Of a stretch of 41,906 nt of DNA, positions 4,378 through 41,860 are shown piece after piece. A program made the position numbers and the translations under genes. The stretch is taken from the sequence record MN850624.1; one strand, 5' to 3'. The stretch's first letter is position 1. Every line of letters begins with the position of its first letter. Source of the stretch: Escherichia phage usur. The notes beneath the pieces were generated by a model, which was not told where the DNA came from, searched no databases, and saw only the letters and a list, made by a program, of their open reading frames with translations.

Positions 4378-6750
4378 TTAGATATAAGTGACCGGGTACG
4401 TCGCGGCAAGCTGAGTCCCAGCAGGGATAGCCGTAACGAGCGCCGGGGTAATGTCGATGCGTACCGGGTTCCCGATGTTGTTGTCCACCTGATAAGGCGC
4501 ACGAACCACCGTAACCGTCAGTGGCGCACCACCAGCGCCAGCGCCCGGCACCTGTAGACGAGTACCAGCCGAGATAGGCTTATGGTACAGCCACGAGGTG
4601 GAAGCCTGAGTACCAGCCGGAGTCAGGTTCTGCTCAAGATACGTCTGGCCAGCGGCAGCAGCACGCACCTTGAAGTTGTTCCCATCATCCGGGATATACG
4701 CACCGAAGCCTGTCACGATGAAGTTGCCACCTGAGCCGTCAGTCTTAAACAGCACCGTCCCCTCGCAGAACTCTTTACCAGTCGGGAACTCCCCACCAGT
4801 CAGGGTTGCAAGGTTATTCGGTAGCGTGTACATGCGGTTGACCGGAGACAGGATGACGCCTACGTTACCTTGGATGTTGGTGTACGGGATAGCACGCACG
4901 TTGGAGTTCAGCGTGCTGATATCCGAGTAGCGAGCCTTACTGTACAGCGCACCCTCAGTCATGCCCTCGCCGTAGAAGTTCACGTTCACCATGTTGAGAA
5001 CAGTCTTCTTGCGCGGGTACAGACCGTTGGATGAAGTGCCGCCGCTGGAGTCATCGCCCACAGCATCGAACACCACCCCGGTCACGTTGGTCATATTCAG
5101 CAGCGTTGCCACGCCGAACAGACTCATCGTATGACAGTGGATGTTTTCCAGATGGTACGTGTTGTTGTTCACGTCATCAGAGCCAACGCCAGCATAGAAG
5201 CGTCCGGTACGGGTCTGCACGTTGCGCACAGTCATGTCAAACGAAGGACATGCCGCGCCCGGCGTACCGCCTGCACCTGCTTGGTTCGCACCCCACTCCA
5301 GCATAACGAGACGAATCGCGTTAGGAGAAGTTGCGCCAGTGTTGATTGGCTCACCAGCCACGCCATCAATGGTCATTCGCTTGCAGCCGTAGGTGATTAC
5401 ACCTGCCGCCGTCAGGCCAGTGCCAGTTGACACAGCGAGGTCAGGGTTACAGAACACGTTCTCACACACGCTGTCGCGGGTAACTTCGAAGTGGACAACC
5501 TGACGCACGCCACGCGGAGCATGGACGTTACGGACTACCACGTTCTTGGCGTACTGCGTTTCAGCAGCATCCCAACCGAACGGGCCTTGGCCAGCAATAC
5601 CAATGCCGATACCCCAGTTGGACAGGGGGATAGGAGCGGTCGTACCGTCGAGGTCTTCAAGGTAGATGTTCTCAATCAGCAGGCCACCATCATAGTGCTT
5701 GTTGATTACGTTCATCTCAATGCCGTCACCCAGCATGTTCATCATAGCGATGTTGCGGATAACGCCGTTCTCGATAGCCTCACCCGTACCCTGCTGGAGA
5801 ATACCGAACTTGCCATTGCGGTGGATACCGTTCTCAATGACGTAGCTGCCCCCGGCGATGTTACCTTGGAACAGGATGCTCGCTACCTTGGAGTTCGATG
5901 GCGCACCAGTGAACTCGTAATCGGAGATGCGAACCTTGCCACCCCAGTAACAGACACGGACAGTGGAGGCTTTGAAGTCACGGAACGTGGAATCCAGCAG
6001 CCGGATATCAGCCGTACCGTTCCAAGTGCCGCCGACAACCTCGATACCGTCCATCAGGACAGTGGAGTTGACAGTACCGACCCAGCCACGGGCATCCACA
6101 GTCTTAGCGTTAGCCTTGGCATAGTCGAAGCACGCTTGTACCGCAGCGGCGATAGAGGCGTACCCGGTGTTGTTGGTGAACTCTGACAGGCATACGGTAT
6201 CCTGACGGTCAAGGAACGTACCGCCGCCCAGTGTACCAATCCACTTACCGCCGTCAGCCATTGCCAAAGCAATCGCCAGTGCGGAGTCAGGGATATCAAC
6301 CAGAGGAATCATGAACGGCTGGCCATTGCTGTCAAAGCCCAGTGCCTTGTTGCGGCGGCCAGCGACGTTCGGTAATGCGTTGATGGAGACTTCGGAGTTT
6401 GGGACACGGACGGCGCGGTCAAGCGGCGCGAGCCATGCTTCCTGAGTTTCCTCAGCCTTGAACAGAATCTGCTCGAAGTTCTCGTCGAGGTTGCTGCCCG
6501 TAAAGGCAGCGTCCTGTCCGAACTTGTTCAGCAGAGTCTCAGAGGTGTAGCGTTGCAAACGGACAATCACCCCGGCAAGCGGGGCGGTGTCAAAGACAAT
6601 CTGTTTGGTCACAGAGTTGTAGGTGTACCCGCTCGTCTGGAGTTCGGAGTTGAGGTACACCTGAATCTGTGTGAACACGCGCTGCTCAAACGTAACGAGG
6701 AACGCGGTCTGCGAGCCGTTCGCCACGTAAGTGTTGTAGCTGTTCGCCAT
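4378..6750 (-). CDS. tail fibre/tailspike with T7 gp17-like N-terminal adaptor and beta-helix depolymerase domain
   Basis: 790 aa; N-terminus 'MANSYNTYVANGSQTAFLVTFEQ...' resembles the T7 gp17 N-terminal domain; central region is Gly/Asn/Thr/Val-rich in a way typical of pectate-lyase-like right-handed beta-helices. Confidence 0.75.
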   Translation of the reverse strand: MANSYNTYVANGSQTAFLVTFEQRVFTQIQVYLNSELQTSGYTYNSVTKQIVFDTAPLAGVIVRLQRYTSETLLNKFGQDAAFTGSNLDENFEQILFKAEETQEAWLAPLDRAVRVPNSEVSINALPNVAGRRNKALGFDSNGQPFMIPLVDIPDSALAIALAMADGGKWIGTLGGGTFLDRQDTVCLSEFTNNTGYASIAAAVQACFDYAKANAKTVDARGWVGTVNSTVLMDGIEVVGGTWNGTADIRLLDSTFRDFKASTVRVCYWGGKVRISDYEFTGAPSNSKVASILFQGNIAGGSYVIENGIHRNGKFGILQQGTGEAIENGVIRNIAMMNMLGDGIEMNVINKHYDGGLLIENIYLEDLDGTTAPIPLSNWGIGIGIAGQGPFGWDAAETQYAKNVVVRNVHAPRGVRQVVHFEVTRDSVCENVFCNPDLAVSTGTGLTAAGVITYGCKRMTIDGVAGEPINTGATSPNAIRLVMLEWGANQAGAGGTPGAACPSFDMTVRNVQTRTGRFYAGVGSDDVNNNTYHLENIHCHTMSLFGVATLLNMTNVTGVVFDAVGDDSSGGTSSNGLYPRKKTVLNMVNVNFYGEGMTEGALYSKARYSDISTLNSNVRAIPYTNIQGNVGVILSPVNRMYTLPNNLATLTGGEFPTGKEFCEGTVLFKTDGSGGNFIVTGFGAYIPDDGNNFKVRAAAAGQTYLEQNLTPAGTQASTSWLYHKPISAGTRLQVPGAGAGGAPLTVTVVRAPYQVDNNIGNPVRIDITPALVTAIPAGTQLAATYPVTYI

Positions 6751-15734: not shown

Positions 15735-16339
15735 TATCCTCTCCGAGCACTCTCATATCGCCACCAGCTCTGACGCTGGCGTGCATTGAATCGACGTTGA
15801 CGGGTATGGATTGACTGGCACTGCTGCAACGCCATGGCATAGCCGCCTGTCACGCTGGCCGGAGGGTTATCCCCAATGTCGTCGGCGTAAGCTGAGATAG
15901 CTGCTTGATATGCAATGAGTCGTTGAACAGGACTCGGTAGGTCATCCCACCCCAAATCATAAGTAACCAATCCCGGAACATCCTCAGTAAAAACAAAGGT
16001 TTGGGATTGCGCGTTGTAAAGATACCCGCCTCGCACAATACACTCAAACCCATCGGGGATGAAGCTCAGTGCGTCTGCGGGATATTTGACTCGACCATCC
16101 GACTCGCGTGGAATGGTGATTCGGATATTGTTGAACCACCAGCCATCGGTGAGGACTTCTTCCGTCGCCACGTTAATCTTGTCAAGCGCAAGGGTAACGG
16201 ACGGGTTTCGAATCTCAGTCGAGGATACGGTGTGCTCCGACAATGCCCGAAGAACAATATTAACTGCTTCGAGTAAAGTCATAAAACCTCCAGTGACAAT
16301 CATAGAAGCCCCTCGTGAGAAGGGCTTCGAGTTTGCCAT
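15734..16339 (-). CDS. tail tubular protein A (gp11-like)
   Basis: 201 aa, directly downstream of the major capsid gene. Confidence 0.75.
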   Translation of the reverse strand: MANSKPFSRGASMIVTGGFMTLLEAVNIVLRALSEHTVSSTEIRNPSVTLALDKINVATEEVLTDGWWFNNIRITIPRESDGRVKYPADALSFIPDGFECIVRGGYLYNAQSQTFVFTEDVPGLVTYDLGWDDLPSPVQRLIAYQAAISAYADDIGDNPPASVTGGYAMALQQCQSIHTRQRRFNARQRQSWWRYESARRG

Positions 16340-17331
16340 TAGGCTTCGGTAGTAACCACGCCTACCACGTCAGGACGACGCTGACCCACGGTGTACATGT
16401 GGAAGCTGTCCAGAACGTTGGTCAGTTCACGTTCGTCATCCCACACGCGGTTGAACAGCGGTTGGGCTTCGACAGTGACCAGAGCCAGAGACGGGTCGAA
16501 GATAATCATCTTACGCTTGATTTCTTCGGCGGTGACGTTGAAGTCGGCACCGAGGATGTGGCTGGTGATTGCTGCCTGCGGGAATGCGTTGCTCTCGATG
16601 ATACGGATACCGTTCACGTAAGCAACACGACGCATAGCGAAGTCGTTCACACCACGACCACCAGTGAACTCAACGTTCATCAGTTTCTTGTGCTCCAGCA
16701 GGATGCTGAACCACGCCGGGTCAATCAGCGTCACCAGACGGCCAAGGTCGGCATCGCGGCGAATGAACGCCTCAATGACTTTCTTGTGGCCATGCACCAG
16801 TGCGCTTGCATCTGCTTCCTCAGAAGCCACGGTGCCAGTCAGCGTTACCTTCTCCTTGATGCCGGAGTTGAACGCGCCTGCCAGAGAGGTCGGAGGAACG
16901 AAGTCAGCAGACTTCTGGAGCTGGATGACGTGCGCTTGGTCGAACGCTTTCGCCTGCGCAGTACCCATGTTACGGGTCAGCTCAGCACGGAAGTCCGGCG
17001 CAGTCCAGTCGTCCTGATAGTCAATCGGGATACGGATGTAAGACACGGTATCCACAGTGACAATCAGCTTCTCAGAGCGAACAGGCTGGTTGTCCAGAGA
17101 CTGACCAGACTTACGGCCCTTCACAGACACGGAGCCGAGACGGTCGCCACGCCAAGTGTTGGACTGGTTCGCAACAGACTTGAAGTTGGTCAGGCCGCTG
17201 CGGAAGATGGAGTTGTAGATGAACTGGGTCTGCACATCACGGTCATACACCTCAAGGTGAATGTCGTTATCAGAGTTCGCGCCACCCCAGTGTGGACGGA
17301 ACTGATTCGGCTGATAGTAGTTGTCGGCCAT
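16339..17331 (-). CDS. major capsid protein
   Basis: 330 aa; follows the scaffold gene; 'AAGGA' RBS 7 nt before the ATG at 17331. Confidence 0.85.
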   Translation of the reverse strand: MADNYYQPNQFRPHWGGANSDNDIHLEVYDRDVQTQFIYNSIFRSGLTNFKSVANQSNTWRGDRLGSVSVKGRKSGQSLDNQPVRSEKLIVTVDTVSYIRIPIDYQDDWTAPDFRAELTRNMGTAQAKAFDQAHVIQLQKSADFVPPTSLAGAFNSGIKEKVTLTGTVASEEADASALVHGHKKVIEAFIRRDADLGRLVTLIDPAWFSILLEHKKLMNVEFTGGRGVNDFAMRRVAYVNGIRIIESNAFPQAAITSHILGADFNVTAEEIKRKMIIFDPSLALVTVEAQPLFNRVWDDERELTNVLDSFHMYTVGQRRPDVVGVVTTEA

Positions 17332-20423: not shown

Positions 20424-20842
20424 TACGGTTTCTCCAAATCAATGAAGCGGTACTCCTGAACGTAAGGCCGCACCATGTGGGAGTAACCGCACCAACGCAC
20501 ACCCTCGGAACGGGCCACGTCTTTGAGTACACGGAGGATGACACGCATCACTCCACGGTTTCTGTACTGGGGCCAGACGTATGAGGCCATAACGACCACC
20601 ATCTCGCCCACATGAATATCGAATAACCTGCCGATGTGAGCAACAGCCATGAGGCTGCCGTCATCGTCAGTGATGTAAACGTCAACACAGCCATTGGCCG
20701 TAGCATCGTACATGCTGTCAACGATTACATCGGGAGATAGGTTCGACCATGGCCGCTCGGCTTGGATGCCCTCGGCCACTGCACGGCGAATGTCAATCGG
20801 CATTGTCGTGTGTGATGTATTTCCCATAGTAGTAGCTTTCAT
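20423..20842 (-). CDS. GNAT-family N-acetyltransferase (putative)
   Basis: 'VWPQYRNRGVMRVILRVLKDVARSEG' matches GNAT motif A (R-x-x-G-x-G/A followed by a helix). No clear RBS for any of the N-terminal Met codons, so the start is uncertain. Confidence 0.45.
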   Translation of the reverse strand: MKATTMGNTSHTTMPIDIRRAVAEGIQAERPWSNLSPDVIVDSMYDATANGCVDVYITDDDGSLMAVAHIGRLFDIHVGEMVVVMASYVWPQYRNRGVMRVILRVLKDVARSEGVRWCGYSHMVRPYVQEYRFIDLEKP

Positions 20843-20843
20843 T

Positions 20844-21110
20844 TCAAATCACTCTTTCGCGTATGAAATCCAGCACGTCCTGCTTACCAGCTTCTCTGTT
20901 GATGAGAGGAAGGTTAGTGTCTATGGTTACTGTCCGGCCAACCTTCTCCCATGTACCGAAGTGCTTTTCCAGTAGAGCTAACTGAGCTTTAGTGAACGTT
21001 ACTCTATCTAATGGAGATTCTTTACCCATACAATCCTCTCTGAGTGGCAGCACCCCCGCCACTGACGGGGCTACCGGTAGCGTGATATCTATCACTATAG
21101 TAGCTTTCAT
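20844..21110 (-). CDS. hypothetical protein (start uncertain)
   Basis: 88 aa ORF starting MKATIVID. The internal Met at 21029 has a strong RBS (AGAGAGGATTGT-ATG) and lies downstream of the promoter-like element, so the real product may be 61 aa. Confidence 0.4.
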   Translation of the reverse strand: MKATIVIDITLPVAPSVAGVLPLREDCMGKESPLDRVTFTKAQLALLEKHFGTWEKVGRTVTIDTNLPLINREAGKQDVLDFIRERVI

Positions 21111-21139
21111 AAATAGTCAAAGAATACAGTACCTTATTA
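21088..21139 (-). promoter_or_regulatory. conserved element A, candidate phage-RNAP promoter (late)
   Basis: Minus strand reads TAAGGTACTGTATTCTTTGACTATTTATGAAAGCTACTATAGTGATAG; the core CTACTATAG resembles the T7/SP6/K11 promoter core CACTATAG. Starts at the RNAP stop codon; followed by a GC stem-loop (GCCCCGTCAGTGGCGGGG) and a strong RBS. Confidence 0.4.
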
Positions 21140-23569
21140 ACAGAAGAATTTGGTAGATTCTTTGACAAGATTTATGTCCAAGCTGCCCTTAGCTGGAGCC
21201 TCACGATTATACGCTTTGGCAAGCTGTTGAATTGGGTCATGTTGCTCATACATCTGCACGAACTTTTCACGGATGACTTTGTGCAGTAACCCTGCATGAG
21301 CAGCAGCAACACCGAATGAGTCATGGATGGATACCATGTAAACCCCGTTATTCCACATCTCCCACAGCACGCGCATCATGTGGCTGGCGTCCATGGCGTG
21401 TACGAAATTCGGAGCAATCGCAGCCGCACACTTACGTCCGTCAGGCTTATCCAGATACTCCCTCAGTTTAATCTGATGGACACCCATGAGGTGCAGGTGC
21501 ATCGGGGATTCCTTGGACGCTTGGTACAGGTTCGGCACCCGCAAACCGGATGGTGCAATAATCTCCACGTACTCGCCCATGCTCGCAGCTTCCAGCGCGA
21601 TAGCCTGCAACCATGCCATAAGCTCAGCAGCTTTCGGCACAACGCGAGGGATAGCGTTCCACATGAACTCAGCAATGAACTGCGCACACTCCAGCAGGGT
21701 CTTCCCTTCCGGCAGCTTGACGCGGTTCTCACGCAGGTACAGGCAGTAGTAATCCACCATGCCGTGCCGGGTTGCCCCGTACACGTAGGTCATCACTGGC
21801 TTCTTCGCCATCGCCCGAACAATGCCGATGGACACCAGCCAAGCACCCATTGGCGTCGGCGTGACTGCCTCACTTTCTTCAAGAGCCTGCATCGCCGCTG
21901 CTGCCGTCTTAAGATAGATGTCTGCTTTGCGTCCCACGCTATTGATAAGATTGACAGCAGCACCTCCAACCTCATCTCGTAGCATCGCACTGAGGTGCTG
22001 GAGTCCTGAACATGTAGCGTCCCATTGCGTAACCACTCGGCAGGGATAAGTCTCAGGACTTCCTGAGTCGATAGCTCGAATGAGTTCAACAGAAGCAGCC
22101 CACGCTGAGATAGGGCTATCGGCCTCTGACCAGAACGAATCAAATGCCTCTGGAAGACGGCACGCCTCACGTAATCGGGGGAGTGTTTTGTCCGTCCACG
22201 CTGCCCGGTCTTCGAAGTCTGTGGCGTCGTATCCAAAACAATTCGCAACATGTACCTTGAGCCAGAACAGCCCCTCGTTTCCGAGAGCCACTGGTTCAGC
22301 AAGTTCGAGCAGCGCTCGCACCGCGTCGATGGACTGAGGGTTAAGGGTCGAAGAATAATAAATTCGGCCCCGCGTATCGGCGTAAGTCGGGAGATAAATC
22401 CTATCGTACTGGGCATAGCGCTCGGCCTCTTTGACTGCGCCGTTCAGTGCCAGCATCTGCGACGTGAACTTACGCAACTCATTGTAATACAAGCGAGTCT
22501 TCACCTTGTACTCATGAGCTTCCGCATCCATCTGCTGCTGCATTTCCGGTGGGAACTTGCTGATGTACTGGGCGAAGCTGACGCCTGCCGGGATAGTGAA
22601 TGGGAGCTTAGGCTCACGGGGCGGCACAGGCAGCCCCATAATGCCTGTACGGTTCGTTCGCAGGAACTCCAGTACCATTGGGTTAACTCGGTACGGAACG
22701 CTGCTGAGCATCATACACGGCTCTATAACGGGGGTCGGGTCAACGCCCAGCGCACGATACCCTTTGTGGTTCATGCGACTGATAACCCGGTACATTGCTG
22801 ACTGCCCCGGCGAGTGCCACATACCACTGCGACCGTTCGGAGCAATCTGCGCTGGCGGTACAATAAGCGGTGGGCAGCACATGCCATCGGCACGCGGCAT
22901 ATCCAGCCAGTCATTCATTGTGGCCAGCACATCTTCGTGCAGGGCGAAGTGCGCAGTACCGCGCTGACGGTGGTTGCCGCCGACGCGGATAGTGCAGACC
23001 AGACCAGTTGGCTCAACGCACTGCATCATCAGCTTGCCCATGGTGATGAGCGCACGCTGAGGCAGGATATCAATCTCTACCCCAACATTGGCTGCCGACG
23101 CTTTGGCTTTGTTGTAAGCATGGTTCGCTGACTTGGTGCGTGACTTCTTCACGTCAGCCTTAACCTTCTCCATGTACGCCGCGCCGACTGGCCCTGACTT
23201 CTTCGCACGCTGGTACACCACCTCAGCCATGAGCGCCTTACCCATGTCTTTCAGCAGATTCAGTACCGCCTGCTCCGACGCTGCACCGGACACCGCCATG
23301 CTGAGCGCCAGCGACGAACACGCCTTGACGCCCAGCTCACGCATAAATGTCCGGTACTGCGCACCAGCACCACGGGTCGTTTCATTCAGGAGGTCTTGCA
23401 TCGCAGCTTCAACTTGAGGGAAAGCCTCAACCATCATACGTTGGAGCAACGGCACCGACCCTGCCCGGCCAGCGGCCATGGCATCTTTGATATTGTCCAG
23501 CCAGCCCTCGCGGTGTCTGGCTCGCGCTTCTTCTTCAAGTCGAATCTGCTCAGCAAGTAAGTCCATCAT
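21137..23569 (-). CDS. single-subunit DNA-dependent RNA polymerase (T7-like)
   Basis: 810 aa; '[20 protein letters not shown]' (T7 '[20 protein letters not shown]'), '[14 protein letters not shown]' and 'SIHDSFGV' match T7 RNAP catalytic motifs. Confidence 0.92.
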   Translation of the reverse strand: [810 protein letters not shown]

Positions 23570-32385: not shown

Positions 32386-33650
32386 TACATATCCTCGAAT
32401 TGGCAGCGGTCAGCAAAGAAGTGAACCTGCGACCGCACGTTGGATGGACGCCCAGCAATCTGGCGTTTGTTCTTCGGAGTGCTGACGCCTCGCCGCGCTG
32501 CCAGCGATGGGTCATCCACGCTGCCGAGCATGACGATAACATCAGTCGCACCTTGGATACCAGTCTTGGAATCCTTGAGTGCGTCCAGTGCAGGGAACAT
32601 ATCATCCTTACCATCGGCTGATACCTGCACCGTGGCCATTGATACGAAGTCATGGCGCACAGCCAGCTCACGTACCTCCTGCCATAGCTGCTCAACCTGC
32701 GACGCCTTGTTGCTGTTGGCATCGGAGACAGACAGCTTGAAGTTAGCCAACATATCCCACACCACAACACATGGGTTCATCGCTTCGATAACCTGCTCAG
32801 CTTTCGCCAGCGATGCGCCGTGCATGTCCTTCACACGAATGATGTTGGCTGGCGCACCCAGCGCTTTGGCATACGCAGCGTGCAGCTTAGCCCTGTCCTC
32901 TCCCAGCTCTTTCAGTTCCGGGAGCGTGCAGTTGAGCGCCGCTTGGTAGATGCGCGGGATGATGTTGATGCCCTGCCCTTCGTTGTTGAACCAGAGGATT
33001 GGCCTGCCCGGATAGAGCTTCGCTGCTGTCGCCGCCATTCGCGTAAGGTTAAACGCGATGAAGGAAGTCTTTCCGCTGTCAGGTCGAGCACCGATGGCAA
33101 CGGAGTCGCCGGGTAGAAGTACGCGAACGCTGTCTTGCAGGCAGAGCAGACCGAACTTGAGGCCGTGATTATCATCCGTCCGGTTGAGAATATCAACCAC
33201 ATCATCGTCCACGTAATCAGTGACAGATGACTGCCCCCGGCTGCGACGTGCGCCCTCAGCAAGACGGCCCAGCTCATAGATAATATCCAGTTCCTCACCA
33301 TTGTCGTACCTCTGCATTAGCAGGTTAGCACGGCCAGCGGTATCCAACTCGACGAGCTGGTCAAGCACACCTTCCTTCTGTTCCTTCGTTGGCTTGTACT
33401 CTCGAAGCTGCGAGCACAACGAATCAAAGGCTGCCATCTGTTCAGGCGTGCTGCCTGTCTTTAAACGAACGTGCGTACCCAGCGTGTCAATGTCAATGTA
33501 GTCACTGTCCGGGAACGCATCAAAGTATGAGCCGTAAGCCTTGAGCATATAGCTCGTGGTCTGGCTCATCGTATCTTCCGGGATGGCGTGTCGCAGGGAG
33601 TTGAACTTCCCGCGCTCGCGCATCACCGTTAACAACAGCTTGTCAAGCAC
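32385..33650 (-). CDS. DnaB-like replicative DNA helicase
   Basis: 421 aa; Walker A 'GARPDSGKTSF'; position after the primase as in phiKMV-like phages. Confidence 0.85.
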   Translation of the reverse strand: MLDKLLLTVMRERGKFNSLRHAIPEDTMSQTTSYMLKAYGSYFDAFPDSDYIDIDTLGTHVRLKTGSTPEQMAAFDSLCSQLREYKPTKEQKEGVLDQLVELDTAGRANLLMQRYDNGEELDIIYELGRLAEGARRSRGQSSVTDYVDDDVVDILNRTDDNHGLKFGLLCLQDSVRVLLPGDSVAIGARPDSGKTSFIAFNLTRMAATAAKLYPGRPILWFNNEGQGINIIPRIYQAALNCTLPELKELGEDRAKLHAAYAKALGAPANIIRVKDMHGASLAKAEQVIEAMNPCVVVWDMLANFKLSVSDANSNKASQVEQLWQEVRELAVRHDFVSMATVQVSADGKDDMFPALDALKDSKTGIQGATDVIVMLGSVDDPSLAARRGVSTPKNKRQIAGRPSNVRSQVHFFADRCQFEDM

Positions 33651-34359: not shown

Positions 34360-34796
34360 TCGTTATCCCAGTCCGGTATGTACTGAATCTTCTTCTTCAT
34401 CTTCACGCTGGCTACAACTTGTAGCACACGGACAGTACCACCGTGGCGCTCTGCCAGACGCTCAGCTTCATCCCGCGCTTCACGTTCAGTGATGTGCTCA
34501 ATCTTCGGCGGCGTGCTGCCACCCTCAAGCAGACACATGAACCGACCGCGCTTCTGCGCCGGGGTACTGACCAGACTGGTGTTGTCCTCCAGCCAATCAG
34601 ATTTGTAGTGGCTGATATCCGGCTGCGCATTCAAGCGCTCACCAATCCAGCTCACGATGTAACGAGTCTCCCCGCTGCGCTCCCACGCTCGGCGGTCAGG
34701 GTTAACCCATGCGATGATACCCAGCTTACCCGACCGGGTGCCAGTGCCATCGTCGCCTACGATTTCATCCCCGACTTTGTACTTTGGCTTTACCAT
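34356..34796 (-). CDS. hypothetical protein
   Basis: 146 aa, tightly packed in the operon. Confidence 0.5.
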   Translation of the reverse strand: MVKPKYKVGDEIVGDDGTGTRSGKLGIIAWVNPDRRAWERSGETRYIVSWIGERLNAQPDISHYKSDWLEDNTSLVSTPAQKRGRFMCLLEGGSTPPKIEHITEREARDEAERLAERHGGTVRVLQVVASVKMKKKIQYIPDWDNE

Positions 34797-34990
34797 TTAA
34801 TCCACCCCTTACTCCAGCCAATGTCAATGCACTTGGACATGCCAACTGCGCCAACAACAAAGCCCAGCAGCGTACCAATTACAGAGGTAAGCTGTTCTCC
34901 AATGTAAGGCTGAATAAGATAGGCAACACCTACCCACAACGCGCCCCACAATATAACGACGACTACGAATAACATTAATACTCGGAACAT
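34790..34990 (-). CDS. small membrane protein (two TM helices)
   Basis: 66 aa, 'MFRVLMLFVVVVILWGALWVGVAYLI...'; strong RBS GGAGGAAAT before the ATG; first gene after the promoter-like element at 35008-35025. Confidence 0.5.
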   Translation of the reverse strand: MFRVLMLFVVVVILWGALWVGVAYLIQPYIGEQLTSVIGTLLGFVVGAVGMSKCIDIGWSKGWIKW

Positions 34991-35007
34991 ATTTCCTCCA
35001 CGTTGGC

Positions 35008-35030
35008 CAATATAGTAGCTTTCATAATGC
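35008..35030 (-). promoter_or_regulatory. conserved element B, candidate phage-RNAP promoter (middle genes)
   Basis: Minus strand reads ATGAAAGCTACTATATTGGCC, same 15-nt core as element A; 226-bp intergenic gap at the early/DNA-metabolism boundary. Confidence 0.35.
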
Positions 35031-35173
35031 CAGCTAAATAATAACTGGCATGAGTAAGATACTAAGCTGGAATAATATTCCGCATAATACGTTGAAGGTC
35101 TTCGAGTTTACTCTCGGCTTCCCACTTTGTATCACGCACAGCCAAAGGTTTATTTGGTTGCAGCTTATCAACT

Positions 35174-35197
35174 ACCCACCAGAATAATCCGGTGGGT
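35174..35197 (-). terminator. stem-loop 19 nt after the last early gene; possible early terminator or processing site
   Basis: Perfect 7-bp stem ACCCACC/GGTGGGT with 10-nt loop; no clear U-tract on the transcribed strand. Confidence 0.25.
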
Positions 35198-35215
35198 GAT
35201 TTGGTTACGGTGAGA

Positions 35216-35731
35216 TTAGTGACGGGTTGCATTCTTGGCCTGCTGCATTGCCTGAATTAATTCACCCACCTGACCACTGACTGCACGGATGGTTGCGTCG
35301 ATGAACTCACCAACGAACAGCAGGCCCAGCGTCGTCTCACTGATATCGCTTGGCACATTAGCGCACGCCATGTACCAGTCGTGATAGCGCTCAGCAATGT
35401 CCGGTTCCGACATGGCCTTAGCTGCGAGCGTACCAGTCAGGCGCAACGTCTCAACCTCAGCCGCATTGCCCTGCTCACTGGCACGCTTCACGTTCATGCC
35501 AATCAGCACGCTAACGTTGCGTGCCAGCAGCGCTCCGGTTCTGGTCTGCGGGATAATGTCCAGCATACCTTCGCGGCCTTTGCGCACCGCGCCGATGTAA
35601 CTTTGCTTCGGCAGGTAGCCACCCTTGAACTCAACCAGTTCGCTCAGCTCCGGGTGGTTGTCGATGAACTCAGCCAGAGACTTGACAGTTTCGAGCTGCT
35701 CTGCGTTGAATAATTTAAAGTCAATAGCCAT
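35216..35731 (-). CDS. hypothetical early protein
   Basis: 171 aa, last gene of the early block. Confidence 0.5.
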   Translation of the reverse strand: MAIDFKLFNAEQLETVKSLAEFIDNHPELSELVEFKGGYLPKQSYIGAVRKGREGMLDIIPQTRTGALLARNVSVLIGMNVKRASEQGNAAEVETLRLTGTLAAKAMSEPDIAERYHDWYMACANVPSDISETTLGLLFVGEFIDATIRAVSGQVGELIQAMQQAKNATRH

Positions 35732-35733
35732 GA

Positions 35734-36027
35734 TTACTTTCCTTCTTTCAGTGTGCGGATTGTGAACTCGTCGTCTTCAAACGCCTGCCATTCACGTTCA
35801 GGGCTATGCCCCAGCTTGGTTACAACCAGTCGGCTGCCGTCATATTCAACGGCACCGATGCGCTGGATGTACCCACCATATGCTACAACGTAGTCGCCCA
35901 GCTTAAGCTCCTGCGTTTTCTTCTCGACGTATGTGAACGGCGAGTCGTCGTGGTCAGGGGTAGGCGGTGGCCCGAAGCTATCCTTCACCCACTGTACCAG
36001 CGCATCCCACTTAGCACTTCTGCTCAT
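35734..36027 (-). CDS. hypothetical early protein
   Basis: 97 aa from ATG 36027 (RBS GAGAGGTG); the ORF-track N-terminal extension overlaps the upstream gene. Confidence 0.5.
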   Translation of the reverse strand: MSRSAKWDALVQWVKDSFGPPPTPDHDDSPFTYVEKKTQELKLGDYVVAYGGYIQRIGAVEYDGSRLVVTKLGHSPEREWQAFEDDEFTIRTLKEGK

Positions 36028-38065: not shown

Positions 38066-38129
38066 GCTCCCCTCTCGTCAATGGATTTCAAAAAGGCTAC
38101 CCGCTGGACAGCCTTGAGTAATCCACTGC

Positions 38130-39150: not shown

Positions 39151-39225
39151 GGATGATACTCCGTAATTGTTGGGGCAGAATTGCCATAAAGCCAGCGCCT
39201 TGACACTGGCTTGAGTCAATCCCGC

Positions 39226-40846: not shown

Positions 40847-40875
40847 ATTACAACACAGTGTATTCAGCTTGTCAA
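40847..40875 (-). promoter_or_regulatory. sigma70-like early promoter P1
   Basis: On the minus strand: TTGACA (40875-40870), 17-nt spacer, TGTAAT (40852-40847), preceded by TGc (extended -10). Confidence 0.5.
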
Positions 40876-40926
40876 CTACTTTTTACTACTGACTGTCAGG
40901 CTTGCTGCCCTGTCAATCTGGAGCGT

Positions 40927-40955
40927 ATTACAGCATACTCGTTTCATCCTGTCAA
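40927..40955 (-). promoter_or_regulatory. sigma70-like early promoter P2
   Basis: Minus strand: TTGACA (40955-40950), 17-nt spacer, TGcTGTAAT (-10 at 40932-40927). Confidence 0.5.
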
Positions 40956-41063
40956 CCGATTTAATCAGCGCCCGTTCTGAGATGAATAAACCGTACCAGT
41001 TTGCCTGCGTGTGTTTTAACGTCTTTATCAATGACTGTTTAGCTTGCTGGCTGACGTGGAAGC

Positions 41064-41092
41064 ATTACAGCATAGTGAGCTTGCCTTGTCAA
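41064..41092 (-). promoter_or_regulatory. sigma70-like early promoter P3
   Basis: Minus strand: TTGACA (41092-41087), 17-nt spacer, TGcTGTAAT (-10 at 41069-41064). Confidence 0.5.
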
Positions 41093-41167
41093 TACACTCC
41101 AGATTGTTAAAGAGCAGTGTTACCGTCTTGCCACCGTGTAGCGATGTTCTGCTACCCGGCGAGATGA

Positions 41168-41330: not shown

Positions 41331-41358
41331 ATAATTATGAAAGCTACTATAGTGATAT
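41311..41358 (+). promoter_or_regulatory. conserved element C (plus-strand copy of the promoter-like element)
   Basis: Plus strand reads TAAGTTACTGTAATCATTAGATAATTATGAAAGCTACTATAGTGATAT, about 40 of 47 positions identical to element A but in opposite orientation to all genes, pointing into the T-depleted tract. Confidence 0.35.
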
Positions 41359-41374
41359 GTATCGCTAGATACGC

Positions 41375-41860
41375 AGAGCGAGCGCGGCGCAGCCGAAACA
41401 AGCGAGCGCGGAACGGCAACGGATGGAATCCGACAGGATGACAGGCGGCAGCCAGTGAACGCAGTAGGACAGGTGACACAGTAGCAGAGCATGACGCGCA
41501 GAGCTGGCGGCGCAGACAGTAGACCAGCAGACAGGACAGCACCACGGCAGCACCGCCACCACACAGCACCACACGGCGCAGAGCATCACGGCAAAAGAGA
41601 CAGATACCCGCACGACCGAGCGCAGCACGCAGCACCGCACAGCCAGCGCAGAGCGTCCCCATAGGACAGCACCGCACCGCACAGCCAGCAGGACAGCGCA
41701 CAGCACGCCACACGGCAGACGATGAAACGCGACACGCACGAGCTATACCGCACGCAGGCAATCCTCTTGACGCGCCGCGCAGCGCACGCGAGCAAATATC
41801 GCGCACGTCGCGAGGCTAATCCGCGCACACGCTATGGGGGCACGCGCGGTCATTCGGGTC
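41375..41860. other. strand-asymmetric, T-depleted (plus strand) low-complexity tract; candidate genome-terminus region
   Basis: Over ~450 bp the plus strand is almost entirely A/C/G with quasi-repeats (GCGCAGAGC, CAGGACAG, CACAGCCAGC). All three minus-strand frames are open here, as expected for an A-poor strand. Confidence 0.6.

Follow-up and report, generated by a model that had tools for sequence, protein, structure and literature searches.

What lies between the small early genes and the DNA-metabolism genes of Escherichia phage usur, and how might transcription pass from one set to the other? We addressed this question on the minus strand of sequence record MN850624.1, whose 41,906 nucleotides (nt), here called the window, make up a near-complete Bonnellvirus genome (Autographiviridae, J8-65-like group). 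A sequence-only reading had placed an early-to-middle transition in a gap of 226 base pairs (bp) at 34990-35216, said to be the largest intergenic region of the gene block, and had listed in it a perfect 7-bp stem-loop, an inverted repeat, a weak hairpin and a conserved element, taken together as an early terminator or processing site followed by a promoter for the phage RNA polymerase. According to our analysis, the intergenic DNA is a spacer of 71 nt, and this spacer is probably a composite junction of the T7 kind, in which an RNase III-type hairpin overlaps a phage promoter. From comparison with T7 and with related phages we infer that RNase III cleaves the hairpin, where it cuts, that this copy of the promoter starts transcription and when these events take place.

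The features on which the argument turns are given below.

35216..35731 (-): upstream early gene of 171 amino acids (aa), from the open reading frame (ORF) listing; "hypothetical protein" in all relatives
35062..35232 (-): ORF56, 56 aa, MQPVTNLTVTKSPTGLFWWVV...IIPA, from the ORF listing; annotated in several relatives
35013..35064 (-): T7-type RNase III-like hairpin of 52 nt with two stems, from the RNAalifold consensus, pair counts and a covariance model
35011..35027 (-): putative phage RNA polymerase promoter TTATGAAAGCTACTATA, -17 to -1; multi-copy, with variants that track the polymerase loop
34995..34999 (-): Shine-Dalgarno sequence GGAGG, 4 nt ahead of the ATG at 34990; kept in 14/14 phages
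34790..34990 (-): 66-aa protein with two hydrophobic segments, from the ORF listing; annotated in relatives

The premise of a largest gap does not hold, since most of the interval is occupied by a conserved gene of 56 aa. ORF56 overlaps the upstream 171-aa gene by 17 nt and is intact in 14/14 genomes examined; the annotations of forsur, glasur, ROV85, RZ4, aldrigsur and others include it, while an intact but unannotated homologue is found in J8-65 (5219-5392), Lidtsur (about 5546-5737) and Kc261 (5642-5812). Its ratio of non-synonymous to synonymous substitution rates (dN/dS) ranges over 0.02-0.04 in comparison with the closer groups, and over 0.16-0.20 with J8-65 and Lidtsur, dS reaching 1.6. 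Judged by these substitution patterns, ORF56 is a real gene under purifying selection, which leaves 34991-35061, 71 nt, as the true spacer. The relatives used here came from a megablast of 34700-35600, which returned 14 full-length matches, all of the genus Bonnellvirus, the nearest being Escherichia phages forsur (96.0%) and glasur (95.7%).

On the gene strand, the RNA of this spacer is predicted to fold into a hairpin whose lower stem starts at the stop codon of ORF56; the structure is thus intergenic and lies on the transcribed strand. Its parts are as follows.

35064-35056 with 35021-35013 (-): lower stem, with one 1x1 mismatch
35055-35052 against 35026-35022 (-): internal loop, ACUC against UAUGA
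35051-35042 with 35036-35027 (-): upper stem of 10 bp, closed by the apical loop UUAUU

The layout of 9 + 1 + 10 pairs is that of an irregular two-stem structure of about 20 bp. The core of the upper stem, ATGCCAG-N11-CTGGCAT, is a perfect 7-bp repeat that can be extended to 10 bp, and it is paired in 14/14 phages although 4/7 of its pairs change on both sides, for example to ATGCCTG/CAGGCAT in aldrigsur, GTGGCAT/ATGCCAC in J8-65 and ATGGCAT/ATGCCAT in Lidtsur. RNAalifold independently finds the 10-bp upper stem together with the lower stem, in which the bases following the ORF56 stop codon pair with the promoter. Across the 14-phage alignment, 95% of the cells of the 20-pair structure are paired and 10/20 pairs have changed on both sides; none of 500 shuffles was as good as the real alignment, and sliding the 3' partners by 1-3 columns left only 31-47% paired. 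Folded alone, each of the 7 distinct variants takes up this structure, with energies of -18 to -22 kcal/mol. The loop is equally constant, with ACUC invariant in the 14 phages and UAUGA (CAUGA in J8-65) on the 3' side, giving a 4/5 arrangement throughout. Moreover, a U.G pair is invariant in 14/14 phages (columns 24/34 of alignment A3) and G.U pairs are frequent at columns 10/49; such pairs point to an RNA made from the sense strand rather than to a DNA palindrome. The sequence-only reading had noticed the inner part of this structure as a weak hairpin, GCCAG-N-CTGGC. The hairpin is indeed there, but it is not weak: among the structures listed in the interval, it is the one that comparison supports strongly.

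The promoter is built into the same hairpin, since its bases -12 to -4 form the 3' strand of the lower stem. The pairing between spacer and promoter is TATCTT/AAGCTA in usur, TCGCTT/AAGCTA in Kc261, CCATCT or CCACCT/AGGTGA in the forsur group and TCATCT/AGGTGT in the aldrigsur group. At -10, only the spacer copy, in two groups, has G in place of the A of the promoter consensus; this change is matched by one from T to C on the opposite strand of the stem. Because the stem partners of usur and Kc261 differ under an identical promoter, the alignment suggests that the promoter is the constrained side of the lower stem.

The element recurs elsewhere in the window. The 15-mer ATGAAAGCTACTATA (35011-35025) is present in three exact copies and one copy with two mismatches, against 0.55 expected, which is above chance and upholds the earlier impression of a conserved element. 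The copies are listed here.

35011-35025 (-): exact; ahead of the small membrane-protein gene
21096 (-): exact; just after the RNA polymerase gene
20828-20842 (-): two mismatches; over the start codon of the second gene downstream of the polymerase gene
41337-41351 (+): exact; antisense to all genes, in the non-coding end region and directed at the genome end

The same four positions carry the element in each of 8 whole genomes. Its bases -8 to -6 vary by phage group, changing jointly at all four sites in these genomes, and its core CTATA is the same as in the T7 and SP6 promoters. The proposal that the element is a promoter for the phage RNA polymerase is supported by these four conserved sites and by concerted variants that track the specificity loop of the polymerase.

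The polymerase of usur (810 aa; 21137-23569, minus strand) matches T7 RNA polymerase with an E-value of 1e-55. Differences between the groups are concentrated in its specificity loop (residues 688-699); the loop residues tabulated below align with T7 745-748, including R746 and N748, and the groups also differ at the residue that aligns with T7 Q754.

usur, Kc261: promoter -9 to -6 GCTA; polymerase loop SPM-HLH
forsur, glasur, ROV85, RZ4: promoter -9 to -6 GTGA; polymerase loop IALNNIN
aldrigsur: promoter -9 to -6 GTGT; polymerase loop TMLNNIN
J8-65: promoter -9 to -6 GTAA..TGT; polymerase loop TTM-GIK

The G at -9 is invariant across the four groups. The four promoter variants pair with the four loop variants in the 8 genomes and at all four sites. 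Specifically, usur is a mosaic, with an early region that is 96% forsur-like and a polymerase that is 99.4% Kc261-like. The polymerase shares 99.4% identity with its Kc261 counterpart and 90% with the one from forsur, while the DNA around the spacer shows the opposite, 96% with forsur and 81% with Kc261. Since the polymerase is Kc261-like but the local DNA forsur-like, the promoter variant follows the polymerase and not the flanking DNA. We tentatively raise the possibility that the polymerase loop, the promoter bases -8 to -6 and the opposite strand of the hairpin have co-evolved within one genus, that at least four natural and possibly orthogonal polymerase-promoter pairs have arisen, and that the promoter buried upstream of the polymerase gene acts as an autocatalytic switch. 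The polymerases of the four pairs are 76-90% identical, three of them being about 90% identical to one another. If such a switch operated, the 5' end of its RNA would differ by about 13 nt from that of the RNase III-processed host transcript.

The hairpin has its counterpart in T7. When T7 is folded around its promoters and around positions 890, 1468, 5887, 13892, 18563 and 36856, which we take to be its RNase III cuts, the same two-stem design appears at R0.3, R0.5, R1.1, R4.7, R6.5 and R18.5, and each of these presumed cuts follows base three of the loop's 3' strand. The coordinates, which reportedly go back to Dunn and Studier in 1983, are consistent with the folds. The R1.1 fold reads GGGACAA-ACUC-AAGGUCAUUC-GCAA-GAGUGGCCUU-UAUGA-UUGACCU, the R4.7 fold GUAU-CCUC-...-CAUGA-AUAC, and the R6.5 fold ACUC-...-UACGA with the phi6.5 promoter in its loop. 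The internal loop of R1.1 is asymmetric, 4-nt/5-nt (PMC6121014). In the spacer hairpin the cut is predicted between U35024 and G35023, that is, between UAU and GA.

We wrote a descriptor by hand, in the order lower stem, [AC]CUC, upper stem of 9 bp, loop, YAYGA and lower stem. Over 22 kb of T7 it matched only R1.1, R4.7 and R6.5; its only matches in the window were the spacer hairpin and one site after the capsid gene, and 200 randomisations gave 0 matches. A covariance model trained on five T7 RNase III sites only, with R6.5 held out, scored the spacer hairpin at 36.2 bits (E 1.8e-7, a rough value owing to shortened calibration), against 14.2 bits for the best background in the window. The same model recovered the held-out R6.5, produced no false match with an E-value under 0.001 when run over about 28.7 kb of T7, and scored the homologous spacer site at 32-36 bits in every relative scored. 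An Rfam search of 34600-35400 (E up to 10) gave only a chance 11-bit match to a Yersinia small RNA and returned no RNase III-site family. In addition to the spacer hairpin, the covariance model found three matches in the window, and all four lie on the gene strand.

38079-38128 (-): RNase III-like hairpin, 53.9 bits with the T7-only covariance model
16291-16341 (-): RNase III-like hairpin, 44.3 bits; directly after the major capsid gene; kept in 8/8 genomes
39175-39225 (-): RNase III-like hairpin, 41.7 bits with the T7-only covariance model

Each of these three adjoins the stop codon of its upstream gene.

Several points weigh against a composite junction of the T7 kind. The spacer hairpin has the lowest score of the four RNase III-like matches in usur, and its upper stem reads AUGCCAG, not the AAGGYC of T7. 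The UAUGA strand belongs to every copy of the promoter, so that half of the loop resemblance is non-independent. The 14 genomes represent only about 5 independent lineages, and promoter and stem changes could have been carried together by local recombination. As for the promoter, the predicted start of the spacer copy lies at about 35010, where TATA is followed by T-T-G-G, so that the first G comes at +3 and the next at +4; in the two strongest-looking copies, those at 21096 and 41337, TATA is followed by GTGAT and the initiating G stands at +1. The spacer copy may thus be weak or start at a shifted position. In LUZ19, phage promoters have been mapped experimentally; two follow the polymerase gene and one, P001, lies antisense at the left end, an arrangement that the other usur copies match, and none of the mapped LUZ19 and KP34 promoters is upstream of the DNA-metabolism genes (PMC10914365). 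The position of the spacer promoter is without direct precedent among phiKMV-like phages (PMC10914365).

Part of this evidence also feeds a narrower explanation, by which only the RNase III site is functional and the spacer promoter copy is inactive, being kept as lower stem or brought in by recombination. The T at the predicted +1, the -10 departure from consensus in two groups and the lack of a mapped promoter at the equivalent position in LUZ19 and KP34 (PMC10914365) are all in its favor. We nevertheless think it unlikely, as any sequence could keep a stem, yet the bases -8 to -6 match the phage's own polymerase type in every lineage, and the promoter is identical in usur and Kc261 where the stem partner differs (TATCTT and TCGCTT). 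It is very improbable that the hairpin is an early transcription terminator, intrinsic or factor-assisted, from which the phage promoter restarts transcription. Its location directly after the stop codon of the last early gene and its stable stem (-18 to -22 kcal/mol) would suit one, and terminators have been predicted upstream of the DNA-metabolism genes in LIMEzero and JG068 (PMC3765740). However, no stem is followed by the U-tract of a Rho-independent terminator, the tails reading UAUGAAAG, UAUUGG and AGUUGAUA; a scan of 34500-35800 found no intrinsic terminator and no sigma-70 promoter, and wider scans found no convincing terminator between the spacer promoter and the polymerase gene 11 kb downstream on the same strand. 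With the polymerase gene downstream, host read-through would be needed before any phage polymerase could be made, and the T7 RNase III sites that the element matches do not terminate. The earlier proposal of a terminator or processing site followed by a phage promoter thus holds for the processing-type hairpin and the promoter, though not for a terminator, and it had credited a different hairpin; a processing element does lie upstream as proposed, but it overlaps the promoter rather than forming a separate module. We give hardly any credence to a purely DNA-level role of the symmetry, as a palindromic operator or cruciform by which a dimeric phage or host protein would control the adjacent promoter. 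The element does abut and overlap the promoter, and compensatory changes keep the inverted repeat as well as the RNA stem. Yet the invariant and frequent G.U pairs are mismatches in DNA and on the other strand, the change of identity at 4/7 core pairs is unfit for a sequence-specific operator, and both the ACUC/UAUGA loop and the match to the covariance model speak for the RNA element of T7.

The different hairpin and the inverted repeat on which the sequence-only reading had relied both lie in ORF56.

35174..35197 (-): stem-loop ACCCACCGGA-UUAU-UCUGGUGGGU, from an RNA fold; 10 bp including one G.U
35069..35081 (-): inverted repeat GGAATAtTATTCC, within the last ORF56 codons (R-N-I-I-P)

In the stem-loop, 35197-35188 pair with 35183-35174 around the perfect 7-bp core ACCCACC/GGTGGGT, and the arms code for S-P-T-G and (F)-W-W-V. 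The 7-bp stem is present as described; it starts 18 nt after the TAA at 35216-35218 and extends to 10 bp. The repeat GGAATA-A-TATTCC is likewise present, one base off the position first given. Neither is more frequent than chance: the window holds 31 hairpins with a perfect 7-bp stem and a loop of 3-12 nt, where randomised sequence gives 31.6, and 9 repeats with 6-bp arms and a 1-nt spacer, where it gives 11. The repeat is perfect in usur only, the relatives reading GGAATGT or CGTAATGT, and as an operator it was rejected for this lack of conservation and its chance frequency. We found no both-sided pair changes in either structure among the relatives, and neither has a U-tract. The stem-loop was rejected as a terminator or processing site on these grounds, for its place in a conserved gene and for the lack of any match to the T7-trained RNase III covariance model. 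A broader regulatory role for it, as a processing, pausing or translational-coupling signal, appears quite unlikely. Such a role could draw on the 10-bp stem, on 5'-arm substitutions that are all wobble-compatible, on its persistence in J8-65 and Lidtsur despite a different loop, and on the fold of the 281-nt region containing it (z = -4.3). On the other hand, the changes in relatives are one-sided only, the conserved coding residues SPTG and WWV dictate most of the bases, and the stem belongs to a class of hairpins found at chance frequency.

Coming back to the composite junction of hairpin and promoter, we propose the following sequence of events. Early in infection, host RNA polymerase would start from promoters of the form TTGACA-N17-TGTAAT and read through the early genes, and the spacer in this early RNA would fold into the 52-nt hairpin. 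Host RNase III would then cut the 3' side of the internal loop between UAU and GA (35024/35023), so that the early mRNA would keep a protective 3' hairpin, as in T7, and be parted from the downstream message. The phage single-subunit polymerase, once made, would start at TTATGAAAGCTACTATA, about 13 nt downstream of the cut, and transcribe the membrane-protein gene, those for primase, helicase and DNA polymerase and, farther along, its own. Transcripts from the phage promoter would remain uncut because they lack the 5' half of the hairpin.

The surroundings of the spacer agree with the early-to-middle placement of the sequence-only reading. The minus strand carries all long ORFs of the window, and the gene order is that of annotated relatives: small early genes, primase, helicase, DNA polymerase, RNA polymerase and structural genes. 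The spacer promoter stands at the boundary between the small early genes and the block of membrane-protein, primase, helicase and DNA polymerase genes, of which the 66-aa protein gene is the first. The ribosome-binding site followed by a 66-aa protein with two transmembrane segments is borne out as well, by GGAGG at 34995-34999, the ATG at 34990 and two hydrophobic stretches. Searches of Pfam and PHROG gave no match for ORF56, the 66-aa membrane protein or the 171-aa protein. The ATG within the promoter motif, annotated as the start codon of the membrane protein in J8-65 (gp11), was rejected, being out of frame in usur and most relatives; the conserved GGAGG serves the downstream ATG. In forsur, the membrane-protein gene (33214-33381) has one additional T compared with usur and glasur, and its annotated product is cut to 55 aa; the T is either a frameshift or a sequencing error.

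Some further observations concern ORF56 and the other copies of the promoter. In J8-65 and Lidtsur an extra gene sits between ORF56 and the hairpin-promoter element. About 60 nt within ORF56 (about 35095-35150, minus strand) are nearly invariant as DNA in 12 phages, synonymous sites included, and in half of these phages the genes flanking ORF56 are only about 77% identical. The specificity bases of the promoter copy at 20828-20842 likewise match the polymerase type of its own genome; the gene at whose start codon it lies is annotated as a GNAT acetyltransferase (GNAT/Rac-like) in Lidtsur. The antisense copy is kept in all 8 genomes and lies in J8-65 at position 548, just inside the 259-bp terminal repeat. 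A short 5' palindrome, GTGATA..TATCAC, reading GTGATAgaTATCAC or GTGATAtgTATCGC, comes after the copies at 21096 and 41337 (21080-21095 on the minus strand and 41352-41365 on the plus strand) and suggests a 5' hairpin on their transcripts that is lacking at the spacer copy. No RNase III-type hairpin was found at the other promoter copies.

Toward the end of the window, ahead of the first early gene (about 40850-41100, minus strand), three or four strong host-type promoters of the form TTGACA-N17-TGTAAT were spotted by eye; they had been overlooked by the sigma-70 consensus scan, as their -10 box has G at the second position (TGTAAT). At about 41400-41800 there is a G+C-rich stretch with many short direct repeats (ctgtgcggtgctg and similar), which adjoins the end of the window and is presumably the genome-end region.

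Together, these results correct the annotation of Bonnellvirus genomes by a conserved 56-aa gene and, in each genome, four phage promoters and four sites of the RNase III type. They would place the T7 RNase III site, including its ACUC/UAUGA loop, beyond the T7 subfamily, in a phage whose gene order is of the phiKMV type, and present a case in which one stretch of DNA meets two constraints, recognition by the polymerase and formation of an RNA stem. The four matched variants of polymerase loop and promoter are candidate orthogonal expression parts. Nothing here overturns current understanding. The hairpin-promoter junction is a known kind of element that is new to Bonnellvirus annotation, and it involves no new mechanism. 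In a limited literature search, we found no mention of promoters, RNase III sites or ORF56 of the present kind for Bonnellvirus, and nothing relevant on RNase III sites in phiKMV-like phages.

Among known systems, the LUZ19 and KP34 promoters share the overall plan, with four copies per genome, of which two closely follow the polymerase gene and one is antisense near the left end (PMC10914365). In sequence, the LUZ19 motif, GgtTATGTCACacACAnnGG, is unrelated to the Bonnellvirus motif, which ends in CTATA like those of T7 and SP6, and the fourth LUZ19 copy falls within the structural region instead of preceding the DNA-metabolism genes. Pairs of promoter and cleavage site have been described in T7 (PMC6938266). 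In two such pairs, R13/phi13 and R6.5/phi6.5, the promoter lies within the RNase III hairpin, in a stem strand at R13 and in the loop at R6.5, as it does in usur; the difference is that the usur start is predicted downstream of the cut. R1.1 and the usur site are alike in their identical 4/5 loop sequences, ACUC and UAUGA, in a 10-bp upper stem with a loop of 4-5 nt, and in a lower stem of 8-9 bp with one 1x1 mismatch. R1.1, however, is located between two promoters while the usur site contains one, and its cleavage is proven while that in usur is predicted.

The closest known case is R4.7/phi4.7 of T7, where an RNase III site and a class II promoter overlap. The two differ in the upper stem (AUGCCAG in usur, AAGGUC in T7), in the extent of the overlap, which covers only -17 to -14 in T7 while the whole of -17 to -4 is within the hairpin in usur, and in the distance from cut to start, 23 nt after the presumed cut in T7 against about 13 nt between the predicted cut and predicted start in usur. 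They share the two-stem hairpin, the loop of (A/C)CUC against YAUGA and the 10-bp upper stem. Furthermore, in both the 3' strand of the lower stem enters the promoter, the cut, as predicted for usur, lies upstream of the start, and the element sits between small genes, ahead of the genes for DNA metabolism.

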